Shown here: one piece after another, positions 2,154 through 19,121 of the stretch
Position numbering within the stretch: position 1 is the first letter of the stretch
Layout: every line of letters starts with the position of its first letter
DNA from: a virus
Virus record (IMG/VR): IMGVR_UViG_3300023196_002944
Coordinates: 1-64,000 of that record
Reading direction: 5' to 3' (one strand)
DNA: 64,000 nt
The notes under the pieces: model-generated
Database searches by the model: none
Told to the model about the DNA's origin: nothing
Seen by the model: only the letters and a program-made list of their open reading frames with translations
Translations under genes and position numbers: made by a program

Positions 2154-3582
2154 TTTTGGGGACGATGTCGGGAAATATGTAGCCGAGCCCGGCAAATTCT
2201 CCAATGACATCTATAAGTGGGGGGAAGAGGGCACCATTCTCTACGATCATGATGGCCCTGATATTTGGCAAGCCAAGGTACTGGCGCGAATAGCCTACTG
2301 CGTCGCTCGAAATCTCCCTGTCAGAATCGCCGTGGCGTCCGGTCACGGCATAGGCAAGTCAGCCTTGGTGGCGTGGTTGATCCACTGGTTCATGTCCACG
2401 CGTGGCCCGAACCCGCAGGTGGTGGTCACGGCCAACACCAAGAACCAGTTGATGACCAAGACGTGGCGCGAACTCGCCCGTTGGCACAAGTTGTCCATCA
2501 ACGAGAAATGGTTCAAGTGGACGGCCACGCGCTACTACGGCTTTAAGAACCCTGAGACATGGGTGGCCAACGCGATCCCGTGGTCTAGTGAGAACTCCGA
2601 AGCGTTCGCCGGCACCCACGAAGAGCATGTGCTGGTCATCTTCGATGAAGCGTCGGCGGTCGACGATGCGATCTGGGAAGTCACCGAGGGCGCGATGACC
2701 ACACCCGGAGCCATGTGGGTGTGCTTCGGGAACCCGACGCGGAACACCGGTCGGTTCAGGGAGTGTTTTGCCGGGGGCAAGTTCTCTCACCGGTGGTGGA
2801 CGATGCAGGTGGATTCCCGCACGGCCAAGATGGCAGACAAGCGGCAGCTAAACGAGTGGATCGAAGATTACGGGATTGATTCTGACTTCGTGAAGGTTCG
2901 TGTCCTCGGCCAGTTCCCCGTCGCTGCCAACAACCAGTTCATCCCCAGTGACATCGTCACTCGCGCACGCGAACTGATTCTTCCTGACGCTGACTTTATC
3001 CAAGAGCCAAAGATTCTGTCCTGTGATCCGGCACGCTTCGGTGATGACTCCACCGTGGTCACGCGCCGGCAGGGCGGGAAGGTCTGGCAGCAAGCAGAGT
3101 ACAAGGGGCTCGACACCATGGCCGTCGCCCGGATTGTGGCGAATGATATCGATGAGTGGTCACCTGATGGAGTGTTCGTCGATGGCATTGGCATCGGGGC
3201 TGGCGTAGTGGATCGCCTACGTGAGATGCACTTCAAGACCTTCGATGTGCAGGTGTCAAATACGGCGAACCAAGAGGATGAATACTTCAATCATCGGGCT
3301 GAAATCTGGGGGGATGGGAGGAAGTGGCTGAGAAGGCAGGTTGATTTACCTGCCGATGATGATAAATTGCAGACAGACCTGATCGGTATTGAGTATGGGT
3401 TTGATGGCAAGGGCCGCATCCAACTGGAGAAAAAGTCCGATATGAAGAAGCGGGGGCTGAACTCCCCCGACCGTGGCGATTCACTGTTCCTTGGGTTCAG
3501 TGTTCCTGTGAGGAAGGATATGTTGCGGGATAGTGGTATATTGGCGATACGCCGTGAGACTGCGAACTGGCGTGTCTTGTAA
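2143..3582 (+). CDS. terL: Terminase large subunit
   Basis: Walker A SGHGIGKS, Walker B LVIFDEAS, coupling motif GNP, RNase H-like nuclease motifs DPARFGDD and SPDRGDS. Confidence 0.95.
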   Translation: MRSNFGDDVGKYVAEPGKFSNDIYKWGEEGTILYDHDGPDIWQAKVLARIAYCVARNLPVRIAVASGHGIGKSALVAWLIHWFMSTRGPNPQVVVTANTKNQLMTKTWRELARWHKLSINEKWFKWTATRYYGFKNPETWVANAIPWSSENSEAFAGTHEEHVLVIFDEASAVDDAIWEVTEGAMTTPGAMWVCFGNPTRNTGRFRECFAGGKFSHRWWTMQVDSRTAKMADKRQLNEWIEDYGIDSDFVKVRVLGQFPVAANNQFIPSDIVTRARELILPDADFIQEPKILSCDPARFGDDSTVVTRRQGGKVWQQAEYKGLDTMAVARIVANDIDEWSPDGVFVDGIGIGAGVVDRLREMHFKTFDVQVSNTANQEDEYFNHRAEIWGDGRKWLRRQVDLPADDDKLQTDLIGIEYGFDGKGRIQLEKKSDMKKRGLNSPDRGDSLFLGFSVPVRKDMLRDSGILAIRRETANWRVL

Positions 3583-3607
3583 TTATGTGATGCTGGAGGA
3601 ATGAATC

Positions 3608-3943
3608 ATGGCTGCTGGTCAGACAATTGCTTCTATCGGTAGTGAAGTTGGTCATCCGCGTGCGGACCTGACCGTAACCGTAGCTGCCCCAGTACTGCTG
3701 CGCATCCGTGGCAGTTCACACCCCATCTCTCTCGTCGGGCTAGCGCCCGCTACGGCGACACTGGTTGTTGCCTATACGTTGTCAAGCTGGGATGAAATGG
3801 ATGCCGGGACTGCCGTCTGGGTGGATTCCGCTATCACGTTTACTCCCGGCACAACGCCTATTGGTGGACAGATCGGATTCCCCGTGAATGGCCTGCGCGC
3901 CACAGCTACTACGCTGACGTGCACGTTGCAGGCGCAGGTGTAA
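3608..3943 (+). CDS. Small beta-rich putative virion protein
   Basis: GGAGG RBS; A/T/V/G-rich 111 aa; first gene of the appendage cluster. Confidence 0.6.
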   Translation: MAAGQTIASIGSEVGHPRADLTVTVAAPVLLRIRGSSHPISLVGLAPATATLVVAYTLSSWDEMDAGTAVWVDSAITFTPGTTPIGGQIGFPVNGLRATATTLTCTLQAQV

Positions 3944-3946
3944 ATC

Positions 3947-4306
3947 ATGGCCTGCGTGCAGCGCGAAAAACTGTGCATTTCGCAGGGGTCGGATTACGAC
4001 CATACCTTCGTCTACACGGAGAAGGACGGTGTCACTCCCATCGACATCACAGGCTTCACCGTAAGGATGAAGTTCAAACCCGACTATGATGACGATACAA
4101 TACTCTACGAAGCCACCTCGGCGGGGGGAGAATTTACGATCCCTAACGGTACGGATGGCGAGATTGAACTGTCCATTGCGAATACGGTCACTGAAGCTTG
4201 GCCTTTTGAAGATGCGGTGTATGATATTGAAATCGTGTCGGCAACAAGCAAAGTAACTCGTATACTGCAAGGTATAGTGGTCCTATCACCGGAGGTAACT
4301 GACTAA
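3947..4306 (+). CDS. Putative fibre-attachment/adaptor protein (BppU N-terminal-like)
   Basis: ISQGSDY...PIDITGFTVRM...GEIELSI...YDIEIV...RILQGIV pattern typical of small phage Ig-like fibre-anchoring proteins. Confidence 0.6.
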   Translation: MACVQREKLCISQGSDYDHTFVYTEKDGVTPIDITGFTVRMKFKPDYDDDTILYEATSAGGEFTIPNGTDGEIELSIANTVTEAWPFEDAVYDIEIVSATSKVTRILQGIVVLSPEVTD

Positions 4307-4473
4307 TGGCTATAGCAAGCGTAGCGCGTAATTACGCAAAATCCGTATCTCTTGATGCCGTGAAGATCACGGCGGATGGGAAGCGTGTCCCACTCGGGAC
4401 CATTTCGTACTGGCACCGCAATCCGTTCATGCGTCTGATGTATGTGGTAAAGCGGTTTTTCAATCTTGTCTAA
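4306..4473 (+). CDS. Small protein, 55 aa (not in ORF track)
   Basis: GGAGGT at 4291; ATG overlaps the upstream TAA; MAIASVARNYAKSVSLDAVKITADGKRVPLGTISYWHRNPFMRLMYVVKRFFNLV fills the gap exactly. Confidence 0.7.
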   Translation: MAIASVARNYAKSVSLDAVKITADGKRVPLGTISYWHRNPFMRLMYVVKRFFNLV

Positions 4474-4485
4474 TGGAGGCTAGCA

Positions 4486-4857
4486 ATGGCTACTCTGGTA
4501 ACGAATGCAGGTCTTGCCGTCGTCACAAACCGACTGAAGGGCGCGGGCACTGAACCCAACTACATCGATTGGGGCACCGACGTCACGGCGGCTGCGGTCA
4601 CCGATACGGCGCTCGGCACTCCCGGTGGTGAGGCCCGCGTAGCGGGTACCTCAACGCAGGAGACGACTTCGGTCACTAACGACACCTACCGTGTTGTTGG
4701 CACCATGACTGAAGGCGGCGCGGGCGAGACATTCCGAGAAGCAGGACTGTTCGACGCGACAACGGCCGGCAACATGCTGGTCAGTGCGCAGTTCGGGGAT
4801 GTTGTTCTGGCGACGGGCGAGTCGATCCAGTTTACGTTCAACGTCCAGTTCTCGTAA
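4486..4857 (+). CDS. Small structural protein resembling the tail-collar-fibre N-terminal domain; candidate major filament subunit
   Basis: LVTNAGL...YIDWGT...DTAL...EAR...EAGLFD...GNML pattern; GGAGG RBS; followed by a hairpin. Confidence 0.65.
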   Translation: MATLVTNAGLAVVTNRLKGAGTEPNYIDWGTDVTAAAVTDTALGTPGGEARVAGTSTQETTSVTNDTYRVVGTMTEGGAGETFREAGLFDATTAGNMLVSAQFGDVVLATGESIQFTFNVQFS

Positions 4858-4870
4858 TGACTCGGGCCAT

Positions 4871-4908
4871 GGGTTGACGGTGCTGTAACAACGGCACCGT
4901 TGGCCTTT
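4871..4908 (+). terminator. Putative intrinsic terminator
   Basis: GGGTTGACGGTGCTGT-AACA-ACGGCACCGTTGGCCT stem (with G:U pairs), followed by a short T run. Confidence 0.55.
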
Positions 4909-4922
4909 GAGGGGAGACGCGC

Positions 4923-7742
4923 ATGGCTCTCGTCTTCAAGGACCGGGTCAAAGAGACAACGTCGACGACCGGGACGGGTACCTATACTCTTCTCGGCGCA
5001 GCGGCGGGCTATCAGTCCTTCGCTGATATTGGTGATGGCAACACCTGCCATTACTTCGTATCTAATGGTGTCGACTGGGAATCTGGTCTAGGCACCTACA
5101 CGGCGGCGGGCACACTCCTTGCCCGCACAACCATCTACGAATCCTCCAATGCCGACGCCGCCGTTAGCTGGGGCGCGGGCACCAAGCAAGTTGAACATGG
5201 CCCGGTGGCGGCGTACGCGGGCGTCACGCTGGTCGATGCCGACATCGGCGTCACCGTCGCCGCCTTCGCTCACAACCACGCTGGAGTATACGAGCCGGCC
5301 GACGCCACGATCCTTAAAGACGCTGACATCGGCGTCACCGTCGCGGCCTTCGCTCACACCCATGCTGGGGTCTATGAGCCGGCCGACGCTACGATCCTCA
5401 AGGATGCAGACATCGGCGTTACGGTCGCGGCCTTCGCGCACAACCACTCAGGCGTGTATGAGCCGGCCGACGCCACGATTCTGAAAGACGCTGACATCGG
5501 CGTCACCGTCGCCGCCTTCGCGCACAACCACTCAGGCGTCTACGAACCGGTCTTCTCCAAGAACACAGGGTTCAACCTCAATCTCGGTACGGGGGCCGGA
5601 ACCGTATCGGAGGGCAACCACAACCACACCGGAGTCTACGAACCCGCTGACGCCACCATCCTCAAAGATGCTGACATCGGCGTTACCGTCGCCGCCTTCG
5701 CGCACAACCACTCGGGGGTGTACGAACCCGCCAGCGCCAATCTGACCAAAGACAATGTAGCCGAGACGATCACTGCGGCATGGGCATTCAACGGCGACAT
5801 CACGACCGCCTTTGAGCAGCACACCTATCTTGGTGCCTACCACGGTATAACAGGTAGCTCTGAATCCATTGTCTCTGGCGGATCAGGAACCACGGACGCT
5901 GTATATCTCGGGCGTATATGTACCGGGATGCACACGCTAAAAATTTATTACTCTGGCTGGGGTGCCTACGAGGGTGGCGAGTACCTAGTCCATAAGGATT
6001 ACGGCGTCACCACTCCAACCATTTTTGAGCAGAATGTTTGGGGCGCTGAGTTAACCTCCCTGCATTGGGTTTCTGTATCCAATACAGCCTGCGATCTGTT
6101 CCTGCTGTTTACGCACTCATCGCCCGTCTCAGAGAGCATCGCCGTCCGATGGACATTTGAATCGGTCAAGGCGACCGCTGACGAGAGAGTAACCTTCCCT
6201 GCGGTAACACCGCCGACGCTTGACGGCACGAATGACATTGTTCCGTGGAAGAAAACACCCAACACGGGTATTACAGAGTACGTCAACACCCCGACTGTCG
6301 GCGGAACAGCGGTATCCCTGACCACGCATAACCACTCGGGCGTGTATGAACCTGCTGACGGCACCATCCTCAAGGACGCTGATATTGGCGTGACGGTCGC
6401 TGCCTTCGCGCACAACCATAGTGCTGCCAATATTACCTCTGGCACCCTTGCGGTTCTTCGCGGCGGTACAGGTGTAACCACGAAGACAGGGACCGGGTCT
6501 GTAGTCCTCTCCGCAAGCCCGGTATTCACCGGGACAGTCGATCTTGGAACGCTTGCCCTAGTCGATGAGCTTAGGGTGGGCGACGGGTCTGTTTCGGCAC
6601 CGTCCATGACTTTTGGTGGGGACACCAATACTGGGTTTTATCGCTACGTAAGTACGGACACATACTTAGCCGTAACAGTAGGCGGGAACCTATGTGCTGA
6701 GTTTGGGTTTGACGAATCTAGTTACGAGTACACGGGTATTTATGGCGACCTGTATGTCTATGGGCAGGGCATTTGGGCTGATGAGGTATTTCTAGCAGAC
6801 CCCGGAAATGTCCAATTAACACTGGATAACACTGTCGCGCCTTCTACGCACGACCGGGTAACGATGGGGGTCAGCACCACTGGCCTGTTCACAATAGATG
6901 GCGACGGCATCCCGATCTTCGAATCGCAGATGGCGGCGACCACGATTACCTACAATCGGTTCCGTGGCCCGATGCAGTTCCAGTACGGCAGCACGGGGCA
7001 GGGCTTCACGGCGCTGTTCGGGGCGGACGCCATATCGAACGGCAGCACCCTGACCAACGTCACGACGAAGATCGCCCGAGTGGGCGTTCCACACTACACC
7101 AATGCAGAACAACCAATGTGCCTGTTTTGGGGGCAGAGCGCCTCCGGCTCTACCAGCATGTCCATAGGCGGTGGGTCGTCACTGTTTAACACTATTGAAA
7201 CCCTCAATATCTACGGAGCCGCCAACGACACGACGGTTACAGGCACGTTGCTGGCCCAGTTCACGCTGGCCGCCGGGCTGAACATGCAGCAGCAGGGCGT
7301 CAAGCTCAACAACCTCGCCTCATCCAACGTGAATACTTTGGATGATTACGAAGAAGGAACCTTCACTCCGGTTGTGTCAGGCAGTACCGTTACCGGGTCA
7401 GGGACATACTCAACTCAGAACGGGTACTACACAAAAGTAGGGGATGTTGTTTACGTATCCATAGATATTGGGTGGACGGCACATACGGGTAGCGGGAATA
7501 TGCTTTTGGATGGGTTGCCTTTTAACGCCAACGCTTCTCATTCCTACCACACGCTCTCGTGCAATTATGAGAGTGGGGTAACTAATAGAACTACAAATAA
7601 GCACATATCCGGTGGGTACATCACGCCTGGTAATAATTACGCTACGTTAGTGCAAACTGACCACGCCGCAGCAGGGGGCGCAGGGGCTATATCTCTCGGG
7701 GCGGCGGGGCGTCTGATGTTCAATGGGTTTTATAAGGTGTAA
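4923..7742 (+). CDS. Tail/head fibre (receptor-binding) protein, 939 aa
   Basis: N-terminal DRVKETT..TGTG domain, 28-aa HxH repeats, LAVLRGGTG motif, GSVSAPSMTFGGDTNTGFY motif and C-terminal LDDYEEGTFTP...YTKVG domain typical of phage fibres. Confidence 0.8.
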   Translation: MALVFKDRVKETTSTTGTGTYTLLGAAAGYQSFADIGDGNTCHYFVSNGVDWESGLGTYTAAGTLLARTTIYESSNADAAVSWGAGTKQVEHGPVAAYAGVTLVDADIGVTVAAFAHNHAGVYEPADATILKDADIGVTVAAFAHTHAGVYEPADATILKDADIGVTVAAFAHNHSGVYEPADATILKDADIGVTVAAFAHNHSGVYEPVFSKNTGFNLNLGTGAGTVSEGNHNHTGVYEPADATILKDADIGVTVAAFAHNHSGVYEPASANLTKDNVAETITAAWAFNGDITTAFEQHTYLGAYHGITGSSESIVSGGSGTTDAVYLGRICTGMHTLKIYYSGWGAYEGGEYLVHKDYGVTTPTIFEQNVWGAELTSLHWVSVSNTACDLFLLFTHSSPVSESIAVRWTFESVKATADERVTFPAVTPPTLDGTNDIVPWKKTPNTGITEYVNTPTVGGTAVSLTTHNHSGVYEPADGTILKDADIGVTVAAFAHNHSAANITSGTLAVLRGGTGVTTKTGTGSVVLSASPVFTGTVDLGTLALVDELRVGDGSVSAPSMTFGGDTNTGFYRYVSTDTYLAVTVGGNLCAEFGFDESSYEYTGIYGDLYVYGQGIWADEVFLADPGNVQLTLDNTVAPSTHDRVTMGVSTTGLFTIDGDGIPIFESQMAATTITYNRFRGPMQFQYGSTGQGFTALFGADAISNGSTLTNVTTKIARVGVPHYTNAEQPMCLFWGQSASGSTSMSIGGGSSLFNTIETLNIYGAANDTTVTGTLLAQFTLAAGLNMQQQGVKLNNLASSNVNTLDDYEEGTFTPVVSGSTVTGSGTYSTQNGYYTKVGDVVYVSIDIGWTAHTGSGNMLLDGLPFNANASHSYHTLSCNYESGVTNRTTNKHISGGYITPGNNYATLVQTDHAAAGGAGAISLGAAGRLMFNGFYKV
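5235..5731 (+). repeat. 84-bp (28-aa) tandem repeats DADIGVTVAAFAHNHSGVYEPADATILK
   Basis: About four tandem copies, a fifth after a short insert, and another near 6327-6420; copies differ mainly at synonymous sites. Confidence 0.9.
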
Positions 7743-7745
7743 AAA

Positions 7746-8036
7746 ATGGCAATCATACAGCGCGTAGAAACACAAATAGACGTACTTCGTGATCGACAGC
7801 TAGGCGTTGCGGTATACACGATCACCGAGGACAGCGTGACCGGCGAAGAAATGGCCCCGGCGCAAGTAGACCGTCGCGTGATCGATGTAGAAGATGATGT
7901 GACCGCCGAAGCTAAAGACATTAAGGATATAGCATCCTTGGTGTGGACTCCTGCCGTTAAATCCGCAAGGCAGGTTAAACGTGCGGAAGAAGCGGCCAAA
8001 ATGGAAGAACTGACGCCGCCGATAGTTGAAGAGTGA
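7746..8036 (+). CDS. Small fibre-associated protein (possible tip/chaperone)
   Basis: IDVL...RRVI...DV...IASLVWTPAV resembles the small gene that typically follows LDDYEEGT-type fibre domains in environmental phages. Confidence 0.6.
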   Translation: MAIIQRVETQIDVLRDRQLGVAVYTITEDSVTGEEMAPAQVDRRVIDVEDDVTAEAKDIKDIASLVWTPAVKSARQVKRAEEAAKMEELTPPIVEE

Positions 8037-8066
8037 TTTGTGTAACTTAAGCAGAAGGATTTAATA

Positions 8067-8303
8067 ATGGATGAGCAAGCGAAACAAGTAGCGAACTACC
8101 TTCTAGGGCTTCTTCAGGAAGCCTGCACTATTCCCGCACGCGAAGCGGAGAACGTCGTAGGAGCGAAGAACTTCCTGCGTGCGATGGCGACTGGGCAATT
8201 GGTGGTCAGTGAACCGAAAGCCCCAGACACCCCGCCCCCCGTTCCGCCAAAGGGGAATGGAGTGGATAGCCCGGATAGCCCGGATTCCCCGCCCGCTGAA
8301 TGA
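8067..8303 (+). CDS. Hypothetical protein with Pro-rich tail
   Basis: AAGGA RBS; 78-aa ORF in operon. Confidence 0.6.
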   Translation: MDEQAKQVANYLLGLLQEACTIPAREAENVVGAKNFLRAMATGQLVVSEPKAPDTPPPVPPKGNGVDSPDSPDSPPAE

Positions 8304-8306
8304 CTC

Positions 8307-9932
8307 ATGGCGACTTACGGCGATGCACCGTATGCGGCGTCATCGGTGTCGATTTTCTACAAGATATTGTCGGCTGTTGTAACAGTCGCGTCGAGCCTTT
8401 CGAAGTCTGCGTATAAAATAGCGAGTGCCACCGTTTCAGCGACGGTGGCACTCGTTAAGTCTATTACCAAGATTCTATCTGCCGGCGTGACGGCTGTTGC
8501 TTCGCTGATCAAGACACTCTACGAAGCGCTGTCAGCCACAGTCACGGCGACGGCTTCGTTGTCCAAGACGCTTTTTGAAACCCTATCGGCCGGCGTAACT
8601 GCTACTGCGACGCTTGCCAAAGAAGCGGCGCTTATATTGGTCGCGCCGGTTACATCAACCGCCGCGCTGATCAAGCGGGGCTACAAGATATTGTCGGACG
8701 CTGTTACAACGACGGCCACTACGCAGACGGCACGCACCCTGTTGTTGGCATTGTCTGCTTCGGTGACGGCTGCGGCTGACCTCATTAAGCGGGTCTACAA
8801 AATCCTCACGGACACCGTCGTGACTACGGCGGATACCGCCGCCGTGAAGGCACTTCTGCGGACCTTGAATGCCACGGTGACGGTCGCCACCACGCTGACC
8901 AAGAGTGTCACCAAGCTGCTGGCCTCTTCGGTAACAGCTTCGGCTTCCCTGATCCGGGCTATTGGTCAGACACTCACCGCGTCGGTGACGGCCTCGGCTG
9001 CGCTGATCAAGCGAGTCTATAAGACGCTGTCAGACCTTTTGGTGGCTACGGCTGCGCTCGACGCAGTTAAGGCACTCCTGAAGACCCTGACGGCCACGGT
9101 GACAGCTTCAGCCACCTTGACGCGTCTCGCTAGCTACCTACGCACCCTCAACGCCTCTGTAACAGCCACAGGCACGTTATTGCGGGGACTGTTCATGTCC
9201 CTATCCGCTACGGTGACTGTGGTCGCTACCTTGGACGTAATTGAACAACTGAAGCGTGTGTTGAATGCTTCTGTGGGGGTGACGGCTTCTCTGGCCAAGA
9301 CTGTTTACAAAATACTAACGGGTGCCGTTACCACGGTGGCAACGACTGAGCCGATCAAGGCGTTTTTGCGGGTACTGAACACTTCGGTCACGGCAGCAGC
9401 CTCATTAACCAAGGAAATTGGTAAGGTATTAAATGCCACCACAACCGTGGCAGCGTCGATCAGCAAAGATGTGTTCAAGTTGCTCACTAGCAGCGTGACA
9501 GCCACAGCGACGCTAATCCGACGCCTGTATATGGCCCTCGCTGCCAGCGTGACCAGTACGGCATCGACGATCAAGCAGGTGAGCAAGTTGCTAGCAGCCA
9601 CCGTGGTGACCGCCGCTACTACGGTTGCAGAGAAGTTCATTGCCGTTCTCGTCGTCTTGACAGCCACAGTCAGTACGACAGCTTCACTCGTTGTTGATCG
9701 TGCATTGTTCCTGCTGGCTCAGGTAGGCGTGGCTGGGTCCATGACCCGGCACATCTTCAAGATTCTCACAGCGACGGTCACTTCAACGGCCACCAAGCTG
9801 GCGAAGCGAGTCAGGGATGAATTCGTGGACATGCACCATTCCATCGTCAAACGGTGCGCGGCGCTGATCACCTACGTGCGGCGTCGCCCGGATGATAGTA
9901 TGACGATCATAAAGCGGCGTGGTAATGATTAA
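8307..9932 (+). CDS. Thr/Ala/Val-rich 18/20-aa repeat protein A (541 aa)
   Basis: About 26 repeats such as KILSAVVTVASSLSKSAY; short leader MATYGDAPYA; basic C-terminal motif. Confidence 0.8.
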   Translation: MATYGDAPYAASSVSIFYKILSAVVTVASSLSKSAYKIASATVSATVALVKSITKILSAGVTAVASLIKTLYEALSATVTATASLSKTLFETLSAGVTATATLAKEAALILVAPVTSTAALIKRGYKILSDAVTTTATTQTARTLLLALSASVTAAADLIKRVYKILTDTVVTTADTAAVKALLRTLNATVTVATTLTKSVTKLLASSVTASASLIRAIGQTLTASVTASAALIKRVYKTLSDLLVATAALDAVKALLKTLTATVTASATLTRLASYLRTLNASVTATGTLLRGLFMSLSATVTVVATLDVIEQLKRVLNASVGVTASLAKTVYKILTGAVTTVATTEPIKAFLRVLNTSVTAAASLTKEIGKVLNATTTVAASISKDVFKLLTSSVTATATLIRRLYMALAASVTSTASTIKQVSKLLAATVVTAATTVAEKFIAVLVVLTATVSTTASLVVDRALFLLAQVGVAGSMTRHIFKILTATVTSTATKLAKRVRDEFVDMHHSIVKRCAALITYVRRRPDDSMTIIKRRGND

Positions 9933-11773
9933 TGGCTATTGAAGTTGTTCGACCGTTAGACGCCTTTGGTACCCTGACCAATAAGGCGAATGCCTACGAT
10001 ACCGACACCGGTACGTTTGCCGACGCCACCGACTACAACTCTACAATTTCGTTCGGCGGCGACACCATACTGGAGATCACCAACGACTGGGATACCAAGG
10101 CTCAGACTTGGGATTCTGCCGAAGTAAAGATCGACTGTTCGTGGGACGGCGCGACCGGCAACGATGAAATGGAAATCCTGCTGGTCGATGCAGGTAACGG
10201 GTACGCCACGGTCGCCACACTTGTGGCCAATACGACGACGACATGGGGGCGCACGACCTACTCGGGAACACTGACAACGGCAGCGTTCGGAACCAACTTC
10301 GTAGACTTCGCTGATGCCCGCCTCCGCGTCAACGGCACTAAGATAGCTGGCAAGGACGGTAAATCCCTCAAGGTCTACGATGTCTGGATCGAAGGCACGT
10401 ACTCAAGTGCTACGCCTGTCACTCTGACCGCCACAGCTACGGCGGTTGCCGCCACGCTTTCCAAGAGCGCAAGTAAGGTTCTGAATGATGCCGTCACGGC
10501 AGCGGTGACCTTGGCCAAGTCGGTCACCAAGGTTCTGAACGACTCAGCTACTGTGGCCGTGACATTAATCAAGTCGGTCACCAAAGTTCTGAACGATGCG
10601 GTTACGACCGTAGCGACCACGACACCGACCAAGCAGGTGCTTCAGGTACTGAATGCCACGGTGTCAGGCGCTGTGAGCTTGTCCAAGAGCGTGAGTAAGG
10701 TGTTGACTGATGCTGTGACCACGACAGCCACGACGGGGTTGATTGCATCCTACCTACGCACGCTGACTGCTACAGCCACGACTGCAGCCGCTTCACTGAT
10801 CAAAACTGTTGCCAAGGTGCTATCGGACAGCGCAGCGACGACGGCTACGATAGAGACACTGAAGGTTTTCGGTCAGGTGCTGAACGCTGCAGTGACTGGT
10901 ACGGCAACGCTAGCCAATGCGGTGTTCAAGGTATTGACCAGCAGCGTGACGGTGGGAGTGACCCTACTCAAGTCGGTGACCAAGACGCTTACTGATGGTG
11001 TGACTACGACGGCCACACTTGATGCAATCAAGAGTGTGCTGATTCTGCTGACCGCTACAGCCACAACCGTTGCGGCCACGCTGGCCAAGTCGGTGGGCAA
11101 AGTACTGAATGGTGGGGCCACGGCAACGGCGACTCTGATCAAGTCAGTCAGCAAAGTGCTGACTGATGGCGCAACAGCAACAGCGGTGCTGATCAAGAGC
11201 GCGTGGAAGATTCTGGCTGATAGCGTAGTGACGACAGCCACGACGCAGGCGTTGAAATTTGTCATTCAGGTGCTGAACGCCACGGTGACAGCAGCCGCTA
11301 CAGCTACGAAATTTATAACCAAGAGCCTTGCTGCCGCAGTGACAGCAACGGCGGTATTGCTCAAGCGCATACCGGTGGCGTTGGTGGCTACGGTAACAAC
11401 GACAGCGACCACGCAGGCGCTGAAGTATGTGCTGCTGGTGCTGACAGCGACGGCTACGACAGCCACAGCGACGCTGACCAAGACGGTGAACTGGGTACTT
11501 TCGGCCACGGTGACCGGGGCAGCGACACTCACTAAATCAGTAGGCAAAGTGCTGACGGCCGGCGTGACGTCGATAGCACAAATTATCAAAAAGCGTTTGG
11601 TGGTTCTCAATGCCGTAGTGACGACAGCCGCTACAGGTGTGGCGACTTTCCTTGGCACACTGAGTCAGTTTGTAGACCGATTCCGAACCGTGATTCCACG
11701 AATTGTAAATCGAACCATCATTAAGGATGTGACTAGCGCGATCTCCATCGTGCTGCGCAAAGGCGGTCTCTGA
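9932..11773 (+). CDS. Thr/Ala/Val-rich repeat protein B with ~160-aa N-terminal globular domain (613 aa)
   Basis: Acidic beta-rich N-terminal domain, then ~22 repeats such as KVLNDAVTAAVTLAKSVT; basic C-terminal motif; TAATG coupling. Confidence 0.8.
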   Translation: MAIEVVRPLDAFGTLTNKANAYDTDTGTFADATDYNSTISFGGDTILEITNDWDTKAQTWDSAEVKIDCSWDGATGNDEMEILLVDAGNGYATVATLVANTTTTWGRTTYSGTLTTAAFGTNFVDFADARLRVNGTKIAGKDGKSLKVYDVWIEGTYSSATPVTLTATATAVAATLSKSASKVLNDAVTAAVTLAKSVTKVLNDSATVAVTLIKSVTKVLNDAVTTVATTTPTKQVLQVLNATVSGAVSLSKSVSKVLTDAVTTTATTGLIASYLRTLTATATTAAASLIKTVAKVLSDSAATTATIETLKVFGQVLNAAVTGTATLANAVFKVLTSSVTVGVTLLKSVTKTLTDGVTTTATLDAIKSVLILLTATATTVAATLAKSVGKVLNGGATATATLIKSVSKVLTDGATATAVLIKSAWKILADSVVTTATTQALKFVIQVLNATVTAAATATKFITKSLAAAVTATAVLLKRIPVALVATVTTTATTQALKYVLLVLTATATTATATLTKTVNWVLSATVTGAATLTKSVGKVLTAGVTSIAQIIKKRLVVLNAVVTTAATGVATFLGTLSQFVDRFRTVIPRIVNRTIIKDVTSAISIVLRKGGL

Positions 11774-12510
11774 TGGCGTTCATACATGCTGACTTTGTAC
11801 TTGAAACCACGGTCACTACCGGGACGGGCACCTATGATCTTGATGGGGCCGTAACAGGACATCGCTCATTCGTGGCAGGGATCGGTGGCGGCAACTCTTG
11901 CTACTACGCCGTTGAAGATGCCACAGATTGGGAAGTTGGTATTGGCATGGTGACCGATGCGGCCCCCGATACAATCTCTCGTACCCAAATCATTTCTTCT
12001 AGCAATGCTGATGCGGCCGTTAACTGGGGGGCGGGTACGAAGAATATCTATTGCACGCTGAGTGGCCACCGTTTGCTCACAGCCCCTGCGACGTACCCGG
12101 TAACTGCCGGCGGGCTCTTAGCGTTCGATGGCACGACTCCCTCTCAGGTTATCGACTCAGGCATCACGGCGGACGCTAACGGAAACATTTCGGCGGGGAT
12201 GGCCACTGTAACAATCAGCACCAGTCGCGCGTTGACACAAACAGATAATGGCAAAGTGTGCGTTTGTGACAATGGGGCGGCAATTACACTTACGTTGCCA
12301 CAGCAATCTACTGAGGCTGTTAATGAAGGCTTCGCCTGCCAAATAGTTCGGGCGGGTACAGGCACAGTTACTTTTGCTACGGAGGGCACGGATGTGCTGT
12401 ACATCGTATCGGGGGCTACGCAAATCGCTGCGCAGTTTGTGTCGGTTTCTGTGCACAAGCACTTCGATGCAGCGCAGAGTACATGGGGCATTTACGGTGA
12501 TCTGACATGA
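11773..12510 (+). CDS. Short fibre/adaptor protein, paralog of the 4923 N-terminus
   Basis: ADFVLETTVTTGTGTYDL...DWEVGIG...SSNADAAVNWGAGTK vs KDRVKETTSTTGTGTYTL...DWESGLG...SSNADAAVSWGAGTK; C-terminal WGIYGDL domain. Confidence 0.8.
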   Translation: MAFIHADFVLETTVTTGTGTYDLDGAVTGHRSFVAGIGGGNSCYYAVEDATDWEVGIGMVTDAAPDTISRTQIISSSNADAAVNWGAGTKNIYCTLSGHRLLTAPATYPVTAGGLLAFDGTTPSQVIDSGITADANGNISAGMATVTISTSRALTQTDNGKVCVCDNGAAITLTLPQQSTEAVNEGFACQIVRAGTGTVTFATEGTDVLYIVSGATQIAAQFVSVSVHKHFDAAQSTWGIYGDLT

Positions 12511-15500
12511 CCACTCGGCAGCAGAGTCCTCGCACCGAAAGGGATACAGCGTCTGATGACGTTGGCCTGAATGCAACAAACCACTGCACGTTTATTCGGC
12601 CGGGGGGGCCAGAAAAAGCATTCCGGCTCTACACGCTAGAGCGTGGATGTCTCATGCATAGTTTTGGCAATTTGTCGTTGACAACCAAAGCAGCAAGCAG
12701 CGGCAGTTCAGATAGCAGCATTATACTGTACCAGAGCGCACGTTTGAGTACGGCTTCGCCAGATAAAACAGAACCAGATGACAATTACACCATATTATAT
12801 ATTTACAGTGATTGGAATAACCCAAATCCCTATAAACAGCCTCCATCAGAGCAAGTCCCATGGACTGAAGCTGGCATGTGGGGACGGTGGTATTACGCGA
12901 ATATAGGCATACCTGAGCAGTCCACCACGCAGTACGCGGCAATGCTGATTGGTATCCACCTGATGCAAACTGGCCCGTCAGACAATTACTACGAAGGCGC
13001 ACTGACGAGCGGCCAAATATTTAGTTGGGGCGCATCGAAAAACGCAGGGCGTGATTGTTACATCAACAATGCATTTACCGACACGCAGTTATGGGGGACA
13101 GTCAGCAGAGCGAATTACGATAGCTACGGGCCTAATTGGGCACCAGCGCAACACAGTGTAGTCCCTGGCGGATGTCGGTACATCTACAATGCATCAACGG
13201 CGCGGGTTCTATTTGATGGATACTGGTACCCCGGCTTGACGCGTGCTGATTATTTATGGGGGTTTCAGGTCTACAACGCCAGTGGTGTGCGCTTGCTTGC
13301 GACGCTTGAAGGAGGGCCGCGACACGCTACCGATCTGACCACTAATGGCGGGTTGGTTATGGGGCTTCAGTTAAACTCCAACCAAGGCGAATCCGATTCG
13401 GGGCAATGCCACCTTGCGCGGATTGGGACTACGGACCCAACAGCGTTCAGCCAAGAATATAGGGATAACCTTTACTGCCCTCCCGGCACGGTGATCGATA
13501 ACTTTAAGAACAACCGTACTGGGACGTTAGATGGGCGACACGTCGAATGGATAGATAATCAGGCGCGACAGTATTCCAGCGGGTTATGGGAACTGAAAGG
13601 CGGTGTCTCTCCTACCTACGTGACAGACGCTACGTATGGCGTCGATATGATTCAGTTCAACAGCGACCCGGCGGTCGACTTCATCTGGCTCGATTACGAT
13701 ACAGACATCCACGTGGCTGTGTCCTTCGATCTTGGCGCGGCGGGAACGGGAGAGATCACGTTTATCTTCCGCTACAAAGACAATCAGAATTACGAGTACT
13801 ACTACGTCACTGCTGGTGGCTATTCGTATGGTGAGTACGTGGCGGGGGTTGGGTCTGAAATCACGGCTTCTGGATCACGCACTAATCGGTTCCAAAACAC
13901 AATTAACTTTGTTATCCAAAAAACGCATGGGACGCCTGTAGCGGCGAATATCAACTTATCTTCCGTCTTGTTTAACGGTGATCGTGTTGATCTGGATAGT
14001 GGCGGCACTCCACCGACAGGGATTACGAACGGTATAGGGTTCAGCGCTAATAAAGACGCAAGAGTGTCGTGCGTGAAGATATGCCCTGATGTGGCGCTGC
14101 CTGATGGAATCCCTAACAAGTGGGGACGTGGGTATCTTGCAGGCAAGTCTGAGTACTCCATGATTATAGGCGGCGTTCCAAGTTATAACCCGAGACATTC
14201 TCGCTATGCGATTTTGCGCACAGCGAGTTCAACACAGCGGCATTCTCTTGTTGGCTTGGAAAGTGCACACGGCAATATGCAGTTTTGGTGCAATAACAAC
14301 AGTAGTGGGTTTCCGCTTGCTCAGTACCAAGTAACGTACAAATCGGCTGGATACATTCAACTGGAAGGGCGGCATCATAATGGTACTGGCGGCGGCGGTA
14401 CGCCGCTTTACTTAATGGGGATGTGCGCCGAAGTTGCCGCGACCCGTTTTAGTACAGGAGCAGGCGGATACGCTATTGCCATGAATACCAATGGGTTCCC
14501 GTGGCGTGGAAAGTGGGCCTTAGAGCTTAATCAGCAAGCTGGTTATTTTGGCGACTGGACGTTAAATGGCTACGGCATGTGCAGTTTTGAAAGGGATGAA
14601 CCGTCAGTTGGCCCCCCGCATACAGGAGGGCACGCAGACCTAGATGACGGTTGGGGTACGGTGTATCTCAATTGGCAGGGGGGCAACTACCCGCTCGGAA
14701 ATGTCACTATTGACCAAAAGGTCGCACTGCATCCAAACATTCCTTGCACCAAAGTTATGGTTCGTATTATGCGTACGAGGCACATGAATGATGTAATCGG
14801 TGACGAAAACAGGGTTAAATTTATTCCCGGCACAGATGCTACGTGGGACTTGAGTGGCACACAGTATTTCTTCGGTCCTAAACTTCGATTTACAGGCATC
14901 GATGCTACGTTCCTTCGGTGGAGTTCAAGCAGCCACAACACAACAGACGTCAGTAGCTCGGTAGTGCCACTGTATATAGGCAGCGGTGAGCCTGATGAGA
15001 CTACGGCCTATGATAATAATTGGGCCACGAAGATTTATGGTGCGGGGGCATCAGGGGCTTTTACAAGCAGCACTTACGATCACGCTCGGTGGTACGAAAC
15101 ATTTTCATCTGGTACCGGTTCTATTGATGGTGTCAATTGCAATAGTGGGGAAGCAATCCCATGGACTGTGATCGGCGCACTAGGGGCTAATGCAAGCACA
15201 TTGCAAACCAACGGCCAGTGGAGCTACGGCGGCGGGTCACGCAAGACCCTCGCCTATCTTGATCCCGGCACGACGGAAGTGTCTTGTTTTTTGTGGTCGC
15301 GGGCCTACGCAGCAGCCGAAGTTATGCTGGCTTTTAGAATCGTAGATGGTTCTAATTTCTGGCTTGCTGGGTTCTGGACGGATGAAACGGCGGTTGAGGT
15401 CGTTCGTTTTGTATCTGATACAGCGACTGTTATGGCGACGCATACGCGGGCGAAGTTCTACGATCCATCAGAAGGGGACGTGCCATTTATTAATATCGCA

Positions 15501-15722
15501 GTGCGCAGTCAGGCAGAAGACATCTTGCTGCAGAACCGTTTCTATACAGATGTCGGGGCTATGACGGCTGATACTACTCACAACACGGCAACGAAGTTTG
15601 GTCTTTACAACCAAAAATCTGGTAACCCAGGCAATTCAATCGTAGAGCGTTTCGCACTTTATGATCTGAGTGACCCAAAATACCTAGAGATGTGGAAGAC
15701 CATGACAGGAGCGGACAGTTGA
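12507..15722 (+). CDS. Large aromatic/Gly-rich putative receptor-binding protein with lectin-like domains (start may be 12654)
   Basis: 1071-aa ORF rich in W/Y/G/N; two similar beta-sandwich-like segments (ITFIFRYKDNQNY / VMLAFRIVDGSNF). Confidence 0.65.
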   Translation: MTTRQQSPRTERDTASDDVGLNATNHCTFIRPGGPEKAFRLYTLERGCLMHSFGNLSLTTKAASSGSSDSSIILYQSARLSTASPDKTEPDDNYTILYIYSDWNNPNPYKQPPSEQVPWTEAGMWGRWYYANIGIPEQSTTQYAAMLIGIHLMQTGPSDNYYEGALTSGQIFSWGASKNAGRDCYINNAFTDTQLWGTVSRANYDSYGPNWAPAQHSVVPGGCRYIYNASTARVLFDGYWYPGLTRADYLWGFQVYNASGVRLLATLEGGPRHATDLTTNGGLVMGLQLNSNQGESDSGQCHLARIGTTDPTAFSQEYRDNLYCPPGTVIDNFKNNRTGTLDGRHVEWIDNQARQYSSGLWELKGGVSPTYVTDATYGVDMIQFNSDPAVDFIWLDYDTDIHVAVSFDLGAAGTGEITFIFRYKDNQNYEYYYVTAGGYSYGEYVAGVGSEITASGSRTNRFQNTINFVIQKTHGTPVAANINLSSVLFNGDRVDLDSGGTPPTGITNGIGFSANKDARVSCVKICPDVALPDGIPNKWGRGYLAGKSEYSMIIGGVPSYNPRHSRYAILRTASSTQRHSLVGLESAHGNMQFWCNNNSSGFPLAQYQVTYKSAGYIQLEGRHHNGTGGGGTPLYLMGMCAEVAATRFSTGAGGYAIAMNTNGFPWRGKWALELNQQAGYFGDWTLNGYGMCSFERDEPSVGPPHTGGHADLDDGWGTVYLNWQGGNYPLGNVTIDQKVALHPNIPCTKVMVRIMRTRHMNDVIGDENRVKFIPGTDATWDLSGTQYFFGPKLRFTGIDATFLRWSSSSHNTTDVSSSVVPLYIGSGEPDETTAYDNNWATKIYGAGASGAFTSSTYDHARWYETFSSGTGSIDGVNCNSGEAIPWTVIGALGANASTLQTNGQWSYGGGSRKTLAYLDPGTTEVSCFLWSRAYAAAEVMLAFRIVDGSNFWLAGFWTDETAVEVVRFVSDTATVMATHTRAKFYDPSEGDVPFINIAVRSQAEDILLQNRFYTDVGAMTADTTHNTATKFGLYNQKSGNPGNSIVERFALYDLSDPKYLEMWKTMTGADS

Positions 15723-16201
15723 TTTCGCGGTACGTACTGACCAAGTGGGAAGTCGTGCTTGCAGGCTCGGATGCCATCCCCACGCGTCGGCCGGCAGTCT
15801 TCGGCCATGCTAAATTAGGCGAGGCGCACATGGATGTGTACACGCCATTTTTTGAAAAGAACATGGAGGTGGGGCACGATGCCTTATTGGTGTTTGTTCG
15901 CGCAGAACAGATTGTGATCGACGCCATTGAAGCGGATACAGCCAAGTGCCTCGTACTGCCCATCGATCACAAGACGCAAAAGTATGACATCAATGCCTCG
16001 CAGCCTGCGAACATCAATCGGGTGAGGTCGTTCCTGAATGCGCGGGGGATTGAAAACCAGCATCTCAGTGAACTTGGCGGGCTCAAAGATGGGCTGTTCG
16101 TCCGCAAGGTGATCGACATCCTTCATGGCTTGAAGGGGGATACAAACAAGATGCCTCACATGAAGCGGTTCTTCGGGGCGTATGCAGGTGAGGATGTCTG
16201 A
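15692..16201 (+). CDS. Hypothetical protein (start possibly TTG at 15719)
   Basis: ORF bridging the 1071-aa gene and repeat protein C; GGAG precedes the TTG at 15719. Confidence 0.6.
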   Translation: MEDHDRSGQLISRYVLTKWEVVLAGSDAIPTRRPAVFGHAKLGEAHMDVYTPFFEKNMEVGHDALLVFVRAEQIVIDAIEADTAKCLVLPIDHKTQKYDINASQPANINRVRSFLNARGIENQHLSELGGLKDGLFVRKVIDILHGLKGDTNKMPHMKRFFGAYAGEDV

Positions 16202-17121
16202 TGCCTGCTCTTGGTCGGTACCCTATCGCCACGGCGCACTTTGCCAAGGAGCCTACTCTTGGCCCCGCCCCTCCAGTGCTTCTCACGCTGAACGCTTTAA
16301 TCGACGTCGGCATCGATCTGTACAAGCTGACGTGGGAGACGCTATCTGCCACGGTGACTACAGCGGCAGACGTCGTGACGTTCAAGTTTGTGTCTGTTGC
16401 GCTGACGGCTGCAGCTACGACTGTTACAGCGGCGCTCTCCCGGTCCTATCTATTGATCAAGTCTGCCGTGGTGACTACAACAGCCACCATGACCAAGATC
16501 GCAGATTTTCTACGGGTGCTTTCAGCGTCAGTCACGACGACAGCGACAGCCTTGAAGCATATTACATTCAATGCCCTCGTCGCCGCAGTGACAGCAGCGG
16601 CTTCGACGGGGGTGGCTCGGACCCTGCTGCTATCACTGACAGCAGTAGCGACAGCTACTGCTGTCCTATTCCGTATGATATCCATGACCTTGGCAGCGGC
16701 AGCAACTGTAGTGTCTACCTTGGTTAAACGCGTGGGCAAGGTTCTGATAGTTACAGTTAGTGCAGCGGCATCTGTCTTCCGGCAGATGTACCGAATACTC
16801 ACGTCTTCGGTTACTGCTACGGCGATTCAGGTGAAGATTGATCTGTTCCGCATCCTGTCAGCTACGGTGAATACCGTGGCCACGTTAGGGAAACCTCTCA
16901 TCACCAAGATTTTCTATACTCCTGTACGGAAGACGGCGACGTTGACTCGCCATATTACCCAATCGCTGTACGCTGCAGTAAGTGCTACTATAACGGGGAC
17001 TTGGGAGTTTATGTCGCCTCACAACCCGAGGTACCGAACCATTGTGAAGCGTTGTGTAGTGGAGACACGTCTGGTAGCGAAGCGTCTTAGGACGATTATT
17101 CGCCCGCGTGGAAATGGGTAA
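16201..17121 (+). CDS. Thr/Ala/Val-rich repeat protein C (306 aa)
   Basis: About 12 repeats such as RILTSSVTATA; leader MPALGRYPIATAHFA; C-terminal RTIVKRC...TIIRPRGNG. Confidence 0.8.
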   Translation: MPALGRYPIATAHFAKEPTLGPAPPVLLTLNALIDVGIDLYKLTWETLSATVTTAADVVTFKFVSVALTAAATTVTAALSRSYLLIKSAVVTTTATMTKIADFLRVLSASVTTTATALKHITFNALVAAVTAAASTGVARTLLLSLTAVATATAVLFRMISMTLAAAATVVSTLVKRVGKVLIVTVSAAASVFRQMYRILTSSVTATAIQVKIDLFRILSATVNTVATLGKPLITKIFYTPVRKTATLTRHITQSLYAAVSATITGTWEFMSPHNPRYRTIVKRCVVETRLVAKRLRTIIRPRGNG

Positions 17122-17126
17122 ATGAT

Positions 17127-17546
17127 ATGCCTGAGAAACTTCTTGAGTTCCTGAACATCAAAGAATGCGCTATGCCGTTCATGCTTGCAGCGAGTACCCA
17201 TACCAATCGACTCAACTTTCCTCGACTCCTAGAACTGGTCATCATCGTCGCATCGTCGGCGTTTGCCTCATACCAGATCATTGAGTATCGGCTTGATAAC
17301 GCAGCGGCAGACATCGTTACGTTGGAAGCGAACTTGCTAACCACCAATGCCAACTTCATTAATCTGGAGCGTACGTTGACTTCTACGAAGCTGGCGATGT
17401 CCGACCGATGGACTGGAGCTGACGAAGCTGATTACCAGTACGCCCACCTCAAAGAACATCATGCCATGATGAAAGAGGTTACGGGAGCCATTGAAAAGAT
17501 GGCTGACCGCATACGAGCGGTAGAGATTAATAACGGAGGCAGGTGA
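17127..17546 (+). CDS. Membrane protein with coiled coil (lysis-associated?)
   Basis: One hydrophobic segment LLELVIIVASSAFASY then heptad-like sequence; directly precedes the endolysin. Confidence 0.55.
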   Translation: MPEKLLEFLNIKECAMPFMLAASTHTNRLNFPRLLELVIIVASSAFASYQIIEYRLDNAAADIVTLEANLLTTNANFINLERTLTSTKLAMSDRWTGADEADYQYAHLKEHHAMMKEVTGAIEKMADRIRAVEINNGGR

Positions 17547-17547
17547 C

Positions 17548-18171
17548 ATGATCGTGCTGGTTTCTGCAGGCCATCATGGGCGGGCGAGAGGGGCAGTCTT
17601 TGAAGGCTTCTCTGAGTACCCCGAGACGTCGATCTGGGCTGATGCGCTCGTCACAGCGATCAACGAGATGAAAGAGACTCGGCACCATCCTCTTCTTGCA
17701 GACTACCCCGCAGCCATGCGCATTCAGAGTGGGCTACTGCGCGACAAGGTGGTTGAAGTCAACGAAATTTGCAAGGCGTCGCCTGTTTTCTGCGCCATAG
17801 AAATCCACTTTAATTCAGCCGCTGCCGCGAATGTCAGAGGAAGCGAGACGCTGTACGCTCCCGGTTCTCAGCGAGGCAGGGGCATTGCTCAGATTGTTCA
17901 GCGCTACTTGGCCAAGACGTTTCCGCCCGACCGTGGCATCAAGGAGGGCTGGTACCGTATGGATAGGCCGGGCATCATCGATTACCAAGGCGACGTTGAT
18001 GGTGATGAGAAAATTGACTTTTGGCTGCGTAAGACACAGTGCCCCGCGCTGATTGTCGAGCCTGAATTTATTCAGAACAATGGGCTGATTACTGGCAAGC
18101 GTGAAGAGGGGATAACGCAGTTGGCAGAAGGCGTACTTGACGCCTTCATGGCTCCTGCAACGAGGCAATAA
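17548..18171 (+). CDS. Endolysin, N-acetylmuramoyl-L-alanine amidase (Amidase_3)
   Basis: VLVSAGH, downstream E, IEIHFNS and PALIVEPEF zinc-amidase motifs. Confidence 0.9.
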   Translation: MIVLVSAGHHGRARGAVFEGFSEYPETSIWADALVTAINEMKETRHHPLLADYPAAMRIQSGLLRDKVVEVNEICKASPVFCAIEIHFNSAAAANVRGSETLYAPGSQRGRGIAQIVQRYLAKTFPPDRGIKEGWYRMDRPGIIDYQGDVDGDEKIDFWLRKTQCPALIVEPEFIQNNGLITGKREEGITQLAEGVLDAFMAPATRQ

Positions 18172-18174
18172 AGT

Positions 18175-18603
18175 GTGGAACAAATACAGCAGAAGGTAGA
18201 ATACCTTGCTCCGACACAGCATCCGCCGCCACCTGATGGCGTATGGGAAGCGCTTTGGCCGGCGATCCACTCATTGATGACTCCAGCATTGATCGGGGCT
18301 TTCGTCCTCACGATTGCAGCAACGCATATCCTCAAACAGATTGTGCCCGTGACGTTCCCCCACGTTACAGCTAGTGAGAACATATGGCGGGCTTTCTGCG
18401 CTACAGCGTCCATGCTGATCGGCGCGATGGCGGGTACCGTTGTATGGCTTGCTTCCAATGCGGAATGGTTGGCTATCCCACTTGTGGCGTTCGGTACTGG
18501 ACTTGTCTGGCGGATAATGATCGCTTTGCTTCCCGCACGAATCAGTGCAGCTTTGATGACGGATGAAGACCGTCGATGGAAGCAGGAAGAGCTAGGAGGG
18601 TGA
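18175..18603 (+). CDS. Putative holin (3 TM segments)
   Basis: Three hydrophobic stretches and a charged C-terminus; adjacent to the amidase. Confidence 0.55.
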   Translation: MEQIQQKVEYLAPTQHPPPPDGVWEALWPAIHSLMTPALIGAFVLTIAATHILKQIVPVTFPHVTASENIWRAFCATASMLIGAMAGTVVWLASNAEWLAIPLVAFGTGLVWRIMIALLPARISAALMTDEDRRWKQEELGG

Positions 18604-18604
18604 T

Positions 18605-19102: not shown

Positions 19103-19121
19103 ATTAAGGTAGACTGCGGCT

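Follow-up and report, generated by a model that had tools for sequence, protein, structure and literature searches.

Candidate chain-like fibres with three ropes and a single bead gene in the fibre module of a podophage

Chain-like phage fibres, assemblies in which small bead proteins are carried on an extended polypeptide rope, have been resolved only since 2023, and only a handful of phages are known to have them. In GP4, Fiber I consists of five bead dimers on a separately encoded rope and is interlocked with an Ig-like collar, while in A1002 eleven dimers of two gp80-like proteins are held in an augmented beta-sheet with a rope formed by gp39, the 'fiber-dock', which is ~300 Å long with an Ig-like domain at its distal end and with C-terminal domains fixed to the nozzle (PMC13730344). 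In Bas63 the collar protein has an N-terminal rope with two dimers round it 'like beads on a string', the rope filling up the incomplete sandwich of each monomer (PMC12609058). The subject here is the fibre module at 3608-17121 of a viral record, IMGVR_UViG_3300023196_002944, of which bases 1-64000 (the window, meaning the whole stretch analysed) were considered; the record has 72,654 bases and a CheckV completeness of 92%. An earlier note, made from the letters of this DNA alone, had proposed that repeat proteins in the cluster act as length rulers, coated by a small subunit and displaying different tips, and had added that no characterised system with this layout was known. The addition does not hold, as GP4 Fiber I, the chain-like fibre of A1002 and the Bas63 whiskers are all beads-on-a-rope assemblies (PMC13730344, PMC12609058). 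The rest of the proposal fares better, and it is reasonably probable that the cluster builds chain-like ('beads-on-a-string') fibres as in these three phages.

The 123-amino-acid (aa) protein encoded at 4486-4857 is a member of the GP4 gp80 bead family. It matches Pfam PF23140 ('Podophage GP4 fiber I protein gp80') with an expectation value (E) of 4.7e-4 and 20.9 bits, under the cut-off of 27, and relatives at 60-79% identity to it carry that domain; its homologues number 1247 at E≤1e-3, with PF23140 on most of the 120 listed. An AlphaFold2 model built from 35 sequences has a mean predicted local distance difference test score (pLDDT) of 80.5 and shows an N-terminal strand and helix with beta strands after them. 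Compared with GP4 gp80 (8jou_a) it gives E 2.5e-3 and template modelling (TM) scores of 0.55/0.51 in Foldseek, and in VIA a Z of 8.1 with a root-mean-square deviation (rmsd) of 3.2 Å over 111 aligned positions. Sf14 neck protein 9c39_K (Z 8.2), Bas63 whisker 9mt4_L (Z 7.7), one domain of a tail protein of HFTV1 (Z 11.8) and the baseplate arm proteins of phi812 and A511 were also returned by VIA, where each of the first 13 rows is a part of the tail, neck or baseplate of a phage or archaeal virus and Z is at most 4.5 afterwards. Searches of the PDB by sequence gave chance-level matches or none for the bead, and its profile reached 8jou_a only at E 0.065. It is the sole bead gene in the whole 72.7-kb record. 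The 55-aa product of the gene before it (4306-4473) has homologues directly upstream of the bead genes of seven of the loci described below (L007, L008, L011, L029, L030, L031 and L045), and the motif of that small family, G-x-V-S-Y-W-H-R-N-P-(L/F)-K-R, bears a loose resemblance to the rope C-terminal motif.

Three repeat proteins, of 541, 613 and 306 aa, are most likely ropes. They are mutually paralogous (phmmer E 2.6e-15 to 7e-57), in keeping with the earlier note, where each cassette ends in a member of one repeat family, and no other open reading frame (ORF) of the window joins them at phmmer E≤0.01. Rich in alanine, threonine, valine, leucine and serine, they have residue-identity autocorrelation maxima at 18 and at 36-38 residues; the repeat units, each of 17-23 residues, have the consensus V-L-(N/S)-A-x-V-T-x-A-A-T-L-x-K-S-V-x-K and number ~26 in the 541-aa, 22 in the 613-aa (from residue 165) and 11-12 in the 306-aa rope, ~25 anchors being counted in the first of these. 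The shared C-terminus that had been postulated is there in the form of a weak common motif (541-aa versus 306-aa, E 5e-5; 613-aa versus 306-aa, E 1e-3, both single comparisons), and rope C-termini throughout the loci fetched for this work finish in alike basic strands. A search of 1.84 billion representative proteins gave 1066 relatives of the 541-aa rope at E≤1e-3, with 223 at E≤1e-10, and nearly all of the 150 listed have their repeats C-terminal to a long N-terminal region, which in some is a lectin domain of the concanavalin A (ConA) type. Close relatives of the 541-aa rope were not found at the level of loci, nor was there a match for the 613-aa rope among phage records (tblastn), a Pfam model for any of the rope-type proteins scanned (the three window ropes, GP4 gp79 and the rope of locus L002), or a PDB chain resembling the ropes, sequence matches of the 541-aa rope to the PDB being at chance level or absent. 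The head of the 613-aa rope found only unnamed viral clusters in the Atlas.

Bead and rope genes occur together in both directions of search. Among 80 viral-contig loci selected by their bead gene, 70 have at least 1 kb downstream of it, and a phmmer search of these with the three window ropes (E≤1e-3) found a rope-like ORF in 47; its start lies at most 100 nt from the bead stop in 31 of the 70, at most 1.5 kb in 39 and at most 3 kb in 44, all of these being loci that are interrelated and in part duplicated, so that the counts are not independent events. All 116 rope query-target match pairs are on the strand of the bead. The search overlooks ropes with an 18-residue period in L002, L009, L016, L049 and L050. 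In the opposite direction, two degenerate DNA patterns derived from the rope repeat led to 14 loci, 13 of them with a rope, and the same record holds a bead gene in ten of the 13 (seven within the locus, three by a search of whole records of 28-39 kb). The three bead-less rope records are fragments of 5.8-11.7 kb with the rope at most 1.1 kb from a contig end: searching the entire records found no bead in two of them (5.8 and 7.1 kb), and the thirteenth locus is a contig that begins inside the rope. The neighbourhood comparison which the earlier note had put forward thus comes out on the side of its model. More than one rope gene is present in just two of the 80 bead-selected loci. One of them, L007 9529-18554, is on a viral contig of 71.8 kb, close in size to the present record, with a single bead gene and three rope-like proteins (432, 384 and 862 aa) between which other genes lie; apart from the window, no other of the 80 has three ropes. 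In L003 (MW202615.1) a 998-aa rope-type ORF at 4716-7712 on the plus strand matches the window ropes at E 1.4e-18, and the GenBank annotation there, several tiny coding sequences and one on the minus strand, is probably wrong.

Four copies of the bead were also folded together with residues 165-256 of the 613-aa rope, in three runs and with three controls. The median score was 0.35 (runs 0.60, 0.34 and 0.35) as against 0.13 for the best control, with at least 65% contact agreement between runs and partner pLDDT of at least 49, and the rope segment had a pLDDT of 50-59 with the beads versus 34 when the bead was replaced. Of 80 solved complexes 58 reach the mark used for such folds, as do two of 110 mismatched pairs; at scores of 0.60 or below, only seven of the 80 reach it, along with both of the passing mismatches. 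The job is unlike those on which the tool was calibrated and like complexes already solved, so the pass may reflect that likeness. For the ruler-and-coat proposal, then, the multimer prediction gives a weak pass that stands beside the bead family assignment and the two-way co-occurrence, and it is quite probable that the three ropes are coated by the bead protein.

Turning to the heads, the 939-aa and 245-aa proteins are alike at their N-termini, where a shared domain of 92 aa is 58% identical (E 5e-21), in line with the heads first noticed in these two genes; this domain is here called DRVKET. Its model (pLDDT 90.3) is a small beta-barrel, and of 1000 PDB chains it is matched best by GP4 gp76 in its N-terminal domain (Z 7.0, rmsd 3.3 Å, 90 aligned), which is modelled in the GP4 portal-tail complex, where this chain is present 18-fold. 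The head has no Pfam match and no Foldseek match at E≤0.001, and hhalign finds no sequence relation to GP4 gp75 (probability 0.5%). That it might be a variant of the bead was considered and dropped (hhalign probability 0.2%), as were PDB profile matches to designed 'Cake' propellers, which add up from repeats that match weakly.

Three kinds of N-terminus are seen on the ropes: an 'ALN' leader (29 ropes by hidden Markov model, HMM), an 'FG' leader and a fused globular head. A DRVKET-headed protein is encoded in 20 loci, mostly by the gene directly upstream of the rope. It is found in the locus of none of the 29 ALN-leader ropes and of ten of the 12 FG-leader ropes called by regular expression, counts that are inflated by duplicated and related loci; conversely all 12 ropes in DRVKET loci have the FG leader, ten called by regular expression and those of L049 and L050 by eye. 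No rope was detected in the other eight DRVKET loci, of which seven end within ~500 nt of the DRVKET gene and one, L059, continues for 2.3 kb downstream. Since adaptors like GP4 gp77 and fibre heads of the gp75/76 type ('NNA') are present with both leader classes, leader type is the feature that co-varies with DRVKET. In the window the two ropes that have no fused head (541 and 306 aa) have FG-like leaders and stand in DRVKET cassettes. The notion of different tips is borne out to the extent that the 613-aa rope has its own fused head and that DRVKET accompanies only FG-leader ropes; whether the DRVKET heads dock on the rope leaders is evenly poised. Of the large proteins in these cassettes, the 939-aa fibre has no relative in the PDB by sequence. 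Its 28-aa repeats are encoded in part by an 84-nt tandem repeat at 5241-5550 (3.7 copies, 85% matches), they contain the motif H-N-H-x-G-V-Y-E-P with more copies farther along the protein, and GP4 gp75 has an H-x-H run. Residues 144-228 of the 245-aa protein match phrog_8295 and phrog_4209. The 1071-aa protein has no Pfam, PHROG or PDB match and found only unnamed viral clusters in the Atlas, so the label 'lectin-like' that it had been given is not confirmed.

The gene downstream fits the polarity proposed for the ropes. An HMM built from GP4 gp77 (PF23148) and five relatives detects an adaptor gene in 35 further ORFs of the loci, its matches there numbering 36, and such a gene is in the locus of 24 of the 29 ALN-leader ropes and seven of the 12 FG-leader ropes, starting at the rope stop in the cases compared. 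Because the repeats lie behind the N-terminal region and the adaptor gene lies at the rope stop, the order fits head, rope, anchor, like that in A1002 and in the 613-aa rope. In many of the bead-rope loci the gp77-like gene is followed by one for a ~135-aa protein with C-x-x-C-G-R-K-Y-K (L039 9894-10301, L050 8174-8596), after which come N-termini of the GP4 gp75/76 type; the window has no obvious copy of it. The HMM's sole and marginal match in the window (E 9.6e-4) is a 137-aa gene at 23719-24132 on the plus strand, just past the major capsid gene and without a Pfam family, and it could be the missing collar.

Another candidate is the 119-aa protein encoded near the start of the module, which matches Pfam PF23926 (LtfC-like) at E 3.7e-4 and 21.5 bits, under the cut-off of 27, and in PHROG phrog_1084 (E 1e-23) and phrog_3304 'L-shaped tail fiber protein assembly' (E 1e-9). 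The profile of its family finds PDB chain 26dk_M at E 1.9e-16, and chains of T5 p132 at E 0.05-0.08 (7qg9_R, 0.084); a literature search on the identity of entry 26dk returned nothing. In T5, p132 forms the collar that bears the L-shaped fibres. Homologues of the 119-aa protein lie just upstream of the bead gene in seven loci. It was tried as a relative of gp77 and rejected (hhalign probability 0.7%, no detectable relation), and since the window is without a gp77-type adaptor and this family is not detectably related to gp77, its assignment as rope anchor is a guess.

Put together, each repeat protein would be an extended rope, its 18-20-aa repeats acting as serial docking sites for bead dimers of the single 123-aa protein. 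The dimers would bind, we infer, by strand addition, and the repeat number (~26, 22 and 12) would set fibre length. The conserved basic C-terminus may be the virion-proximal anchor, held in an Ig-like or beta-sandwich collar for which the p132/LtfC-like 119-aa protein is a candidate, and the N-terminus would be distal and bear the head. In the 613-aa rope that head is fused, while the 541- and 306-aa ropes would receive theirs from the upstream gene or genes, the DRVKET beta-barrel docking on the FG-type leader. By our own arithmetic from the A1002 description, the spacing there is ~24 rope residues and ~27 Å per dimer. With one dimer per repeat, the ropes would then carry ~26, 22 and 12 dimers and be ~70, 60 and 32 nm long; if each dimer took up two repeats, the numbers and lengths would be halved, and the super-period of 36-38 residues would fit.

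Several points weigh against such fibres. The loci behind the co-occurrence counts are kin to one another, the complex fold is weak support, and a rope may yet be a self-folding shaft. The gp77-type adaptor of the relatives is missing from the window, and the protein offered in its place has no detectable relation to gp77. Coating all the ropes from one gene would need several hundred beads per virion (by our own arithmetic, with six fibres of each kind). The candidate rope of GP4, gp79, has a leader without a significant match to the ALN leaders (E 5.9). In the rope repeats hydropathy autocorrelates positively at lags 4, 7, 11, 14 and 18 and negatively at lag 2, a pattern closer to an amphipathic helix than to a simple strand, keeping in mind that such lags can also stem from the fixed lysine and asparagine positions in the repeats. 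Finally, given the fold match to gp76, the DRVKET proteins may hang on the tail and not on the ropes.

That last point leads to a reading in which the repeat proteins are ropes of the Fiber I type but the DRVKET-headed proteins (939 aa; 245 plus 1071 aa) are ordinary fibres attached to the tail, comparable with fibres II and III of GP4; in that case the cassettes would be mere gene order, and two ropes would be without a separate tip. GP4 has three fibre types of which one is chain-like (as the title of Zheng et al. 2023 has it), its gp76 chain is present 18-fold in the portal-tail complex, and it is because the matched gp76 domain is docked on the tail there that this alternative is kept alive. 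The Z of 7.0 is, though, in a range that the tool calls common, the domain has no sequence relation to gp75, and the co-variation of leader and DRVKET, with DRVKET only beside FG-leader ropes and never beside the 29 ALN-leader ropes, in loci where gp77-like adaptors and gp75/76-type heads go with both leader classes, speaks against this reading. On balance it is unlikely, if a serious contender. It is improbable that the repeat proteins are self-standing homo-oligomeric shafts, beta or coiled-coil, with their own heads, and that the bead makes short whiskers elsewhere. Such a shaft would suit the hydropathy periodicity, which fits the 18/5 spacing of a helix, the build of most relatives, a large N-terminal head and then repeats like a fibre reversed, the weakness of the complex support, and the weak PHROG tape-measure matches of the 541-aa protein. 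It would leave the bead and rope genes adjacent on one strand in 31 of 70 loci, and the bead in ten of 13 rope records, to be accounted for, and beside the window's bead gene there is no alternative candidate for a rope. The rope segment has a pLDDT of only 34 without beads, and G-K-P, which is helix-breaking, recurs in each repeat of many relatives and so argues against a continuous helix. As for a tape-measure-like or internal, ejected role in place of an external one, what speaks for it are two PHROG matches of the 541-aa protein (E 1.1e-4 and 5.1e-4); these are weak, lie in repeats rich in alanine, threonine, valine and leucine, and have no counterpart in the other two ropes. The genes stand amid fibre genes, relatives have lectin-type heads, and the phage is of podophage type with an SU10-type adaptor and no recognised tail-tube module, so that membership of the ropes among tape measures was rejected and this role is very improbable indeed. 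Chain-like fibres coated by the bead protein are accordingly the reading kept here.

The phage is a podophage with kinship to the GP4/933W group; the features of its fibre module, which this cluster represents, are collected in the table, every ORF that the earlier note had listed having been found again at the same place on the plus strand. The closest relatives of the portal protein among phage records (37-43% identity) are from an Achromobacter phage and from Vibrio phages of 58-60 kb, and the portal search matched 409 phage records, including Stx-converting, Pseudomonas and Ralstonia (31 records) phages. An N4-like phage, an idea that came from the 3776-aa ORF, was dropped because the portal has its relatives in podophages of 58-61 kb (Achromobacter, Vibrio, Stx, Pseudomonas and Ralstonia); at the counterpart place in GP4, after the virion genes, is a 9.7-kb gene annotated 'DarB-like antirestriction protein'. 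Because the portal gene comes directly after the terminase gene in Achromobacter phage CF418P1 and after two small genes in GP4, the 15.5-kb block of fibre and lysis genes (3583-19121) at this position is unusual for the group. Megablast of the module against phage records gave no match. The genes of the module overlap or lie at most 65 nt apart, and neither promoter-like sites (6 against 9.8 expected) nor terminator-like sites (13 against 11.2 expected) are enriched in it, which fits one transcription unit. Of its smaller genes, the first (3608..3943) has no Pfam or PHROG family and no homologue in the fetched bead loci, and the pair at 7746..8303 has as its sole family match a weak one to phrog_6228 (E 8e-4). 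Farther along, over 46000-64000, GC content falls from ~0.54 to 0.43-0.47 and long ORFs move to the minus strand; these are presumably early or replication genes.

Table. Features of the fibre module and its surroundings in the window
Feature	Coordinates	Strand	Remarks
Small terminase	1-621	+	
Large terminase	2143-3582	+	
Fibre module	3608-17121	+	after large terminase, before lysis genes and portal
111-aa small protein	3608..3943	+	first gene past large terminase
119-aa LtfC/p132-like beta-sandwich protein	3947..4306	+	candidate collar or fibre-docking protein
55-aa conserved small protein	4306..4473	+	precedes bead gene
Bead, 123 aa	4486..4857	+	GP4 gp80 (Fiber I)/whisker family
939-aa fibre	4923..7742	+	DRVKET beta-barrel head (~residues 1-95), 28-aa His-rich repeats, C-terminal domains without family
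96-aa gene	7746-8036	+	between 939-aa fibre and rope 1
78-aa gene	8067-8303	+	between 939-aa fibre and rope 1
Rope 1, 541 aa (most likely a rope)	8307..9932	+	FG-like leader, ~26 repeats of 18-20 aa, basic C-terminal motif
Rope 2, 613 aa (most likely a rope)	9932..11773	+	fused N-terminal globular head (~residues 1-164), 22 repeats, C-terminal motif
245-aa protein	11773..12510	+	DRVKET head and short C-terminal part; candidate adaptor for next gene's product
1071-aa protein	12507..15722	+	candidate receptor-binding or enzymatic head
169-aa small gene	15692..16201	+	GTG start uncertain; no family match
Rope 3, 306 aa (most likely a rope)	16201..17121	+	FG-like leader, ~12 repeats, C-terminal motif
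Lysis cassette with amidase-type endolysin	17127-19102	+	
Portal	19122-21233	+	
Scaffold-like protein	21270-22421	+	
Major capsid protein	22466-23704	+	
SU10-type adaptor	24518-25240	+	further virion genes downstream
3776-aa ORF	33861-45191	+	~16% of record

More generally, the 18-residue ropes might be programmable tethers, in which the number of repeats sets the reach of a filament stiffened by beads and the heads are either fused or brought by DRVKET on an FG leader, giving one phage, with a single bead gene, several appendages that differ in length and specificity, in swappable cassettes; this broader idea is possible, if a little short of even. If true, repeat number and exchangeable heads would amount to a testable rule for phage reach and host range and to a scaffold for the display of binding domains, and the window, its three ropes having 12-26 sites, would hold the most elaborate such tethers seen so far. 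The rope signature, an 18-20-aa repeat rich in alanine, threonine, valine and serine together with a leader of the ALN or FG type and a basic motif at the C-terminus, marks ~1000 clusters at 50% identity, usually beside a gp80-like gene, and many phage proteins now called 'hypothetical' could be annotated as fibre cores. As far as the literature was searched, a three-rope phage with different lengths and heads is not described.

Of the described systems GP4 has in common with the window the bead family PF23140 and, most likely, a separate rope gene beside the bead gene, and the phage backbones are related, with Ralstonia phages among the portal matches and a giant ORF in both. The contrasts are that GP4 has five dimers on one rope where the window has three ropes of ~12-26 repeats, that the adaptor gp77 (PDB 8JOU) has no counterpart of its type in the window, and that the fibre module of GP4 is not between terminase and portal. 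Its rope gp79, which is itself a candidate only, is rich in glycine and alanine with ~10-aa repeats and has no sequence similarity to the window ropes; with no PDB chain and no Pfam family to go by, it was not retained as a rope relative. For the T5 collar, the 119-aa family weakly matches both PF23926 and the p132 chains, but these matches are below curated thresholds and the strong PDB match is a different chain, 26dk_M. In Bas63 and Sf14 the whisker monomer has the fold of the bead, and the rope is N-terminal to an Ig-like collar domain, in agreement with the C-terminal anchor proposed here. The rope there is, however, a short N-terminal extension of the collar protein with two dimers, and the suggested role is head-tail bracing or transient contact with lipopolysaccharide (PMC12609058).

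The polarity of A1002, with a distal Ig-like domain, then the rope and then a C-terminal anchor, is the one proposed for the 613-aa rope, and the rope length per dimer calculated for it is close to the 18-20-aa repeat. It differs in that its rope is fused to a split-nozzle domain and that it has two bead proteins, gp40 and gp41, whereas in the window the ropes have a short basic motif at their C-terminal end, a single gene encodes the bead, and for two of the ropes the presumed heads are separately encoded. Set against all of these, what is new here is the presence in one phage of three separately encoded ropes, their length, and one bead gene for all three, together with heads that are fused or split and, where split, have a leader-specific partner domain.

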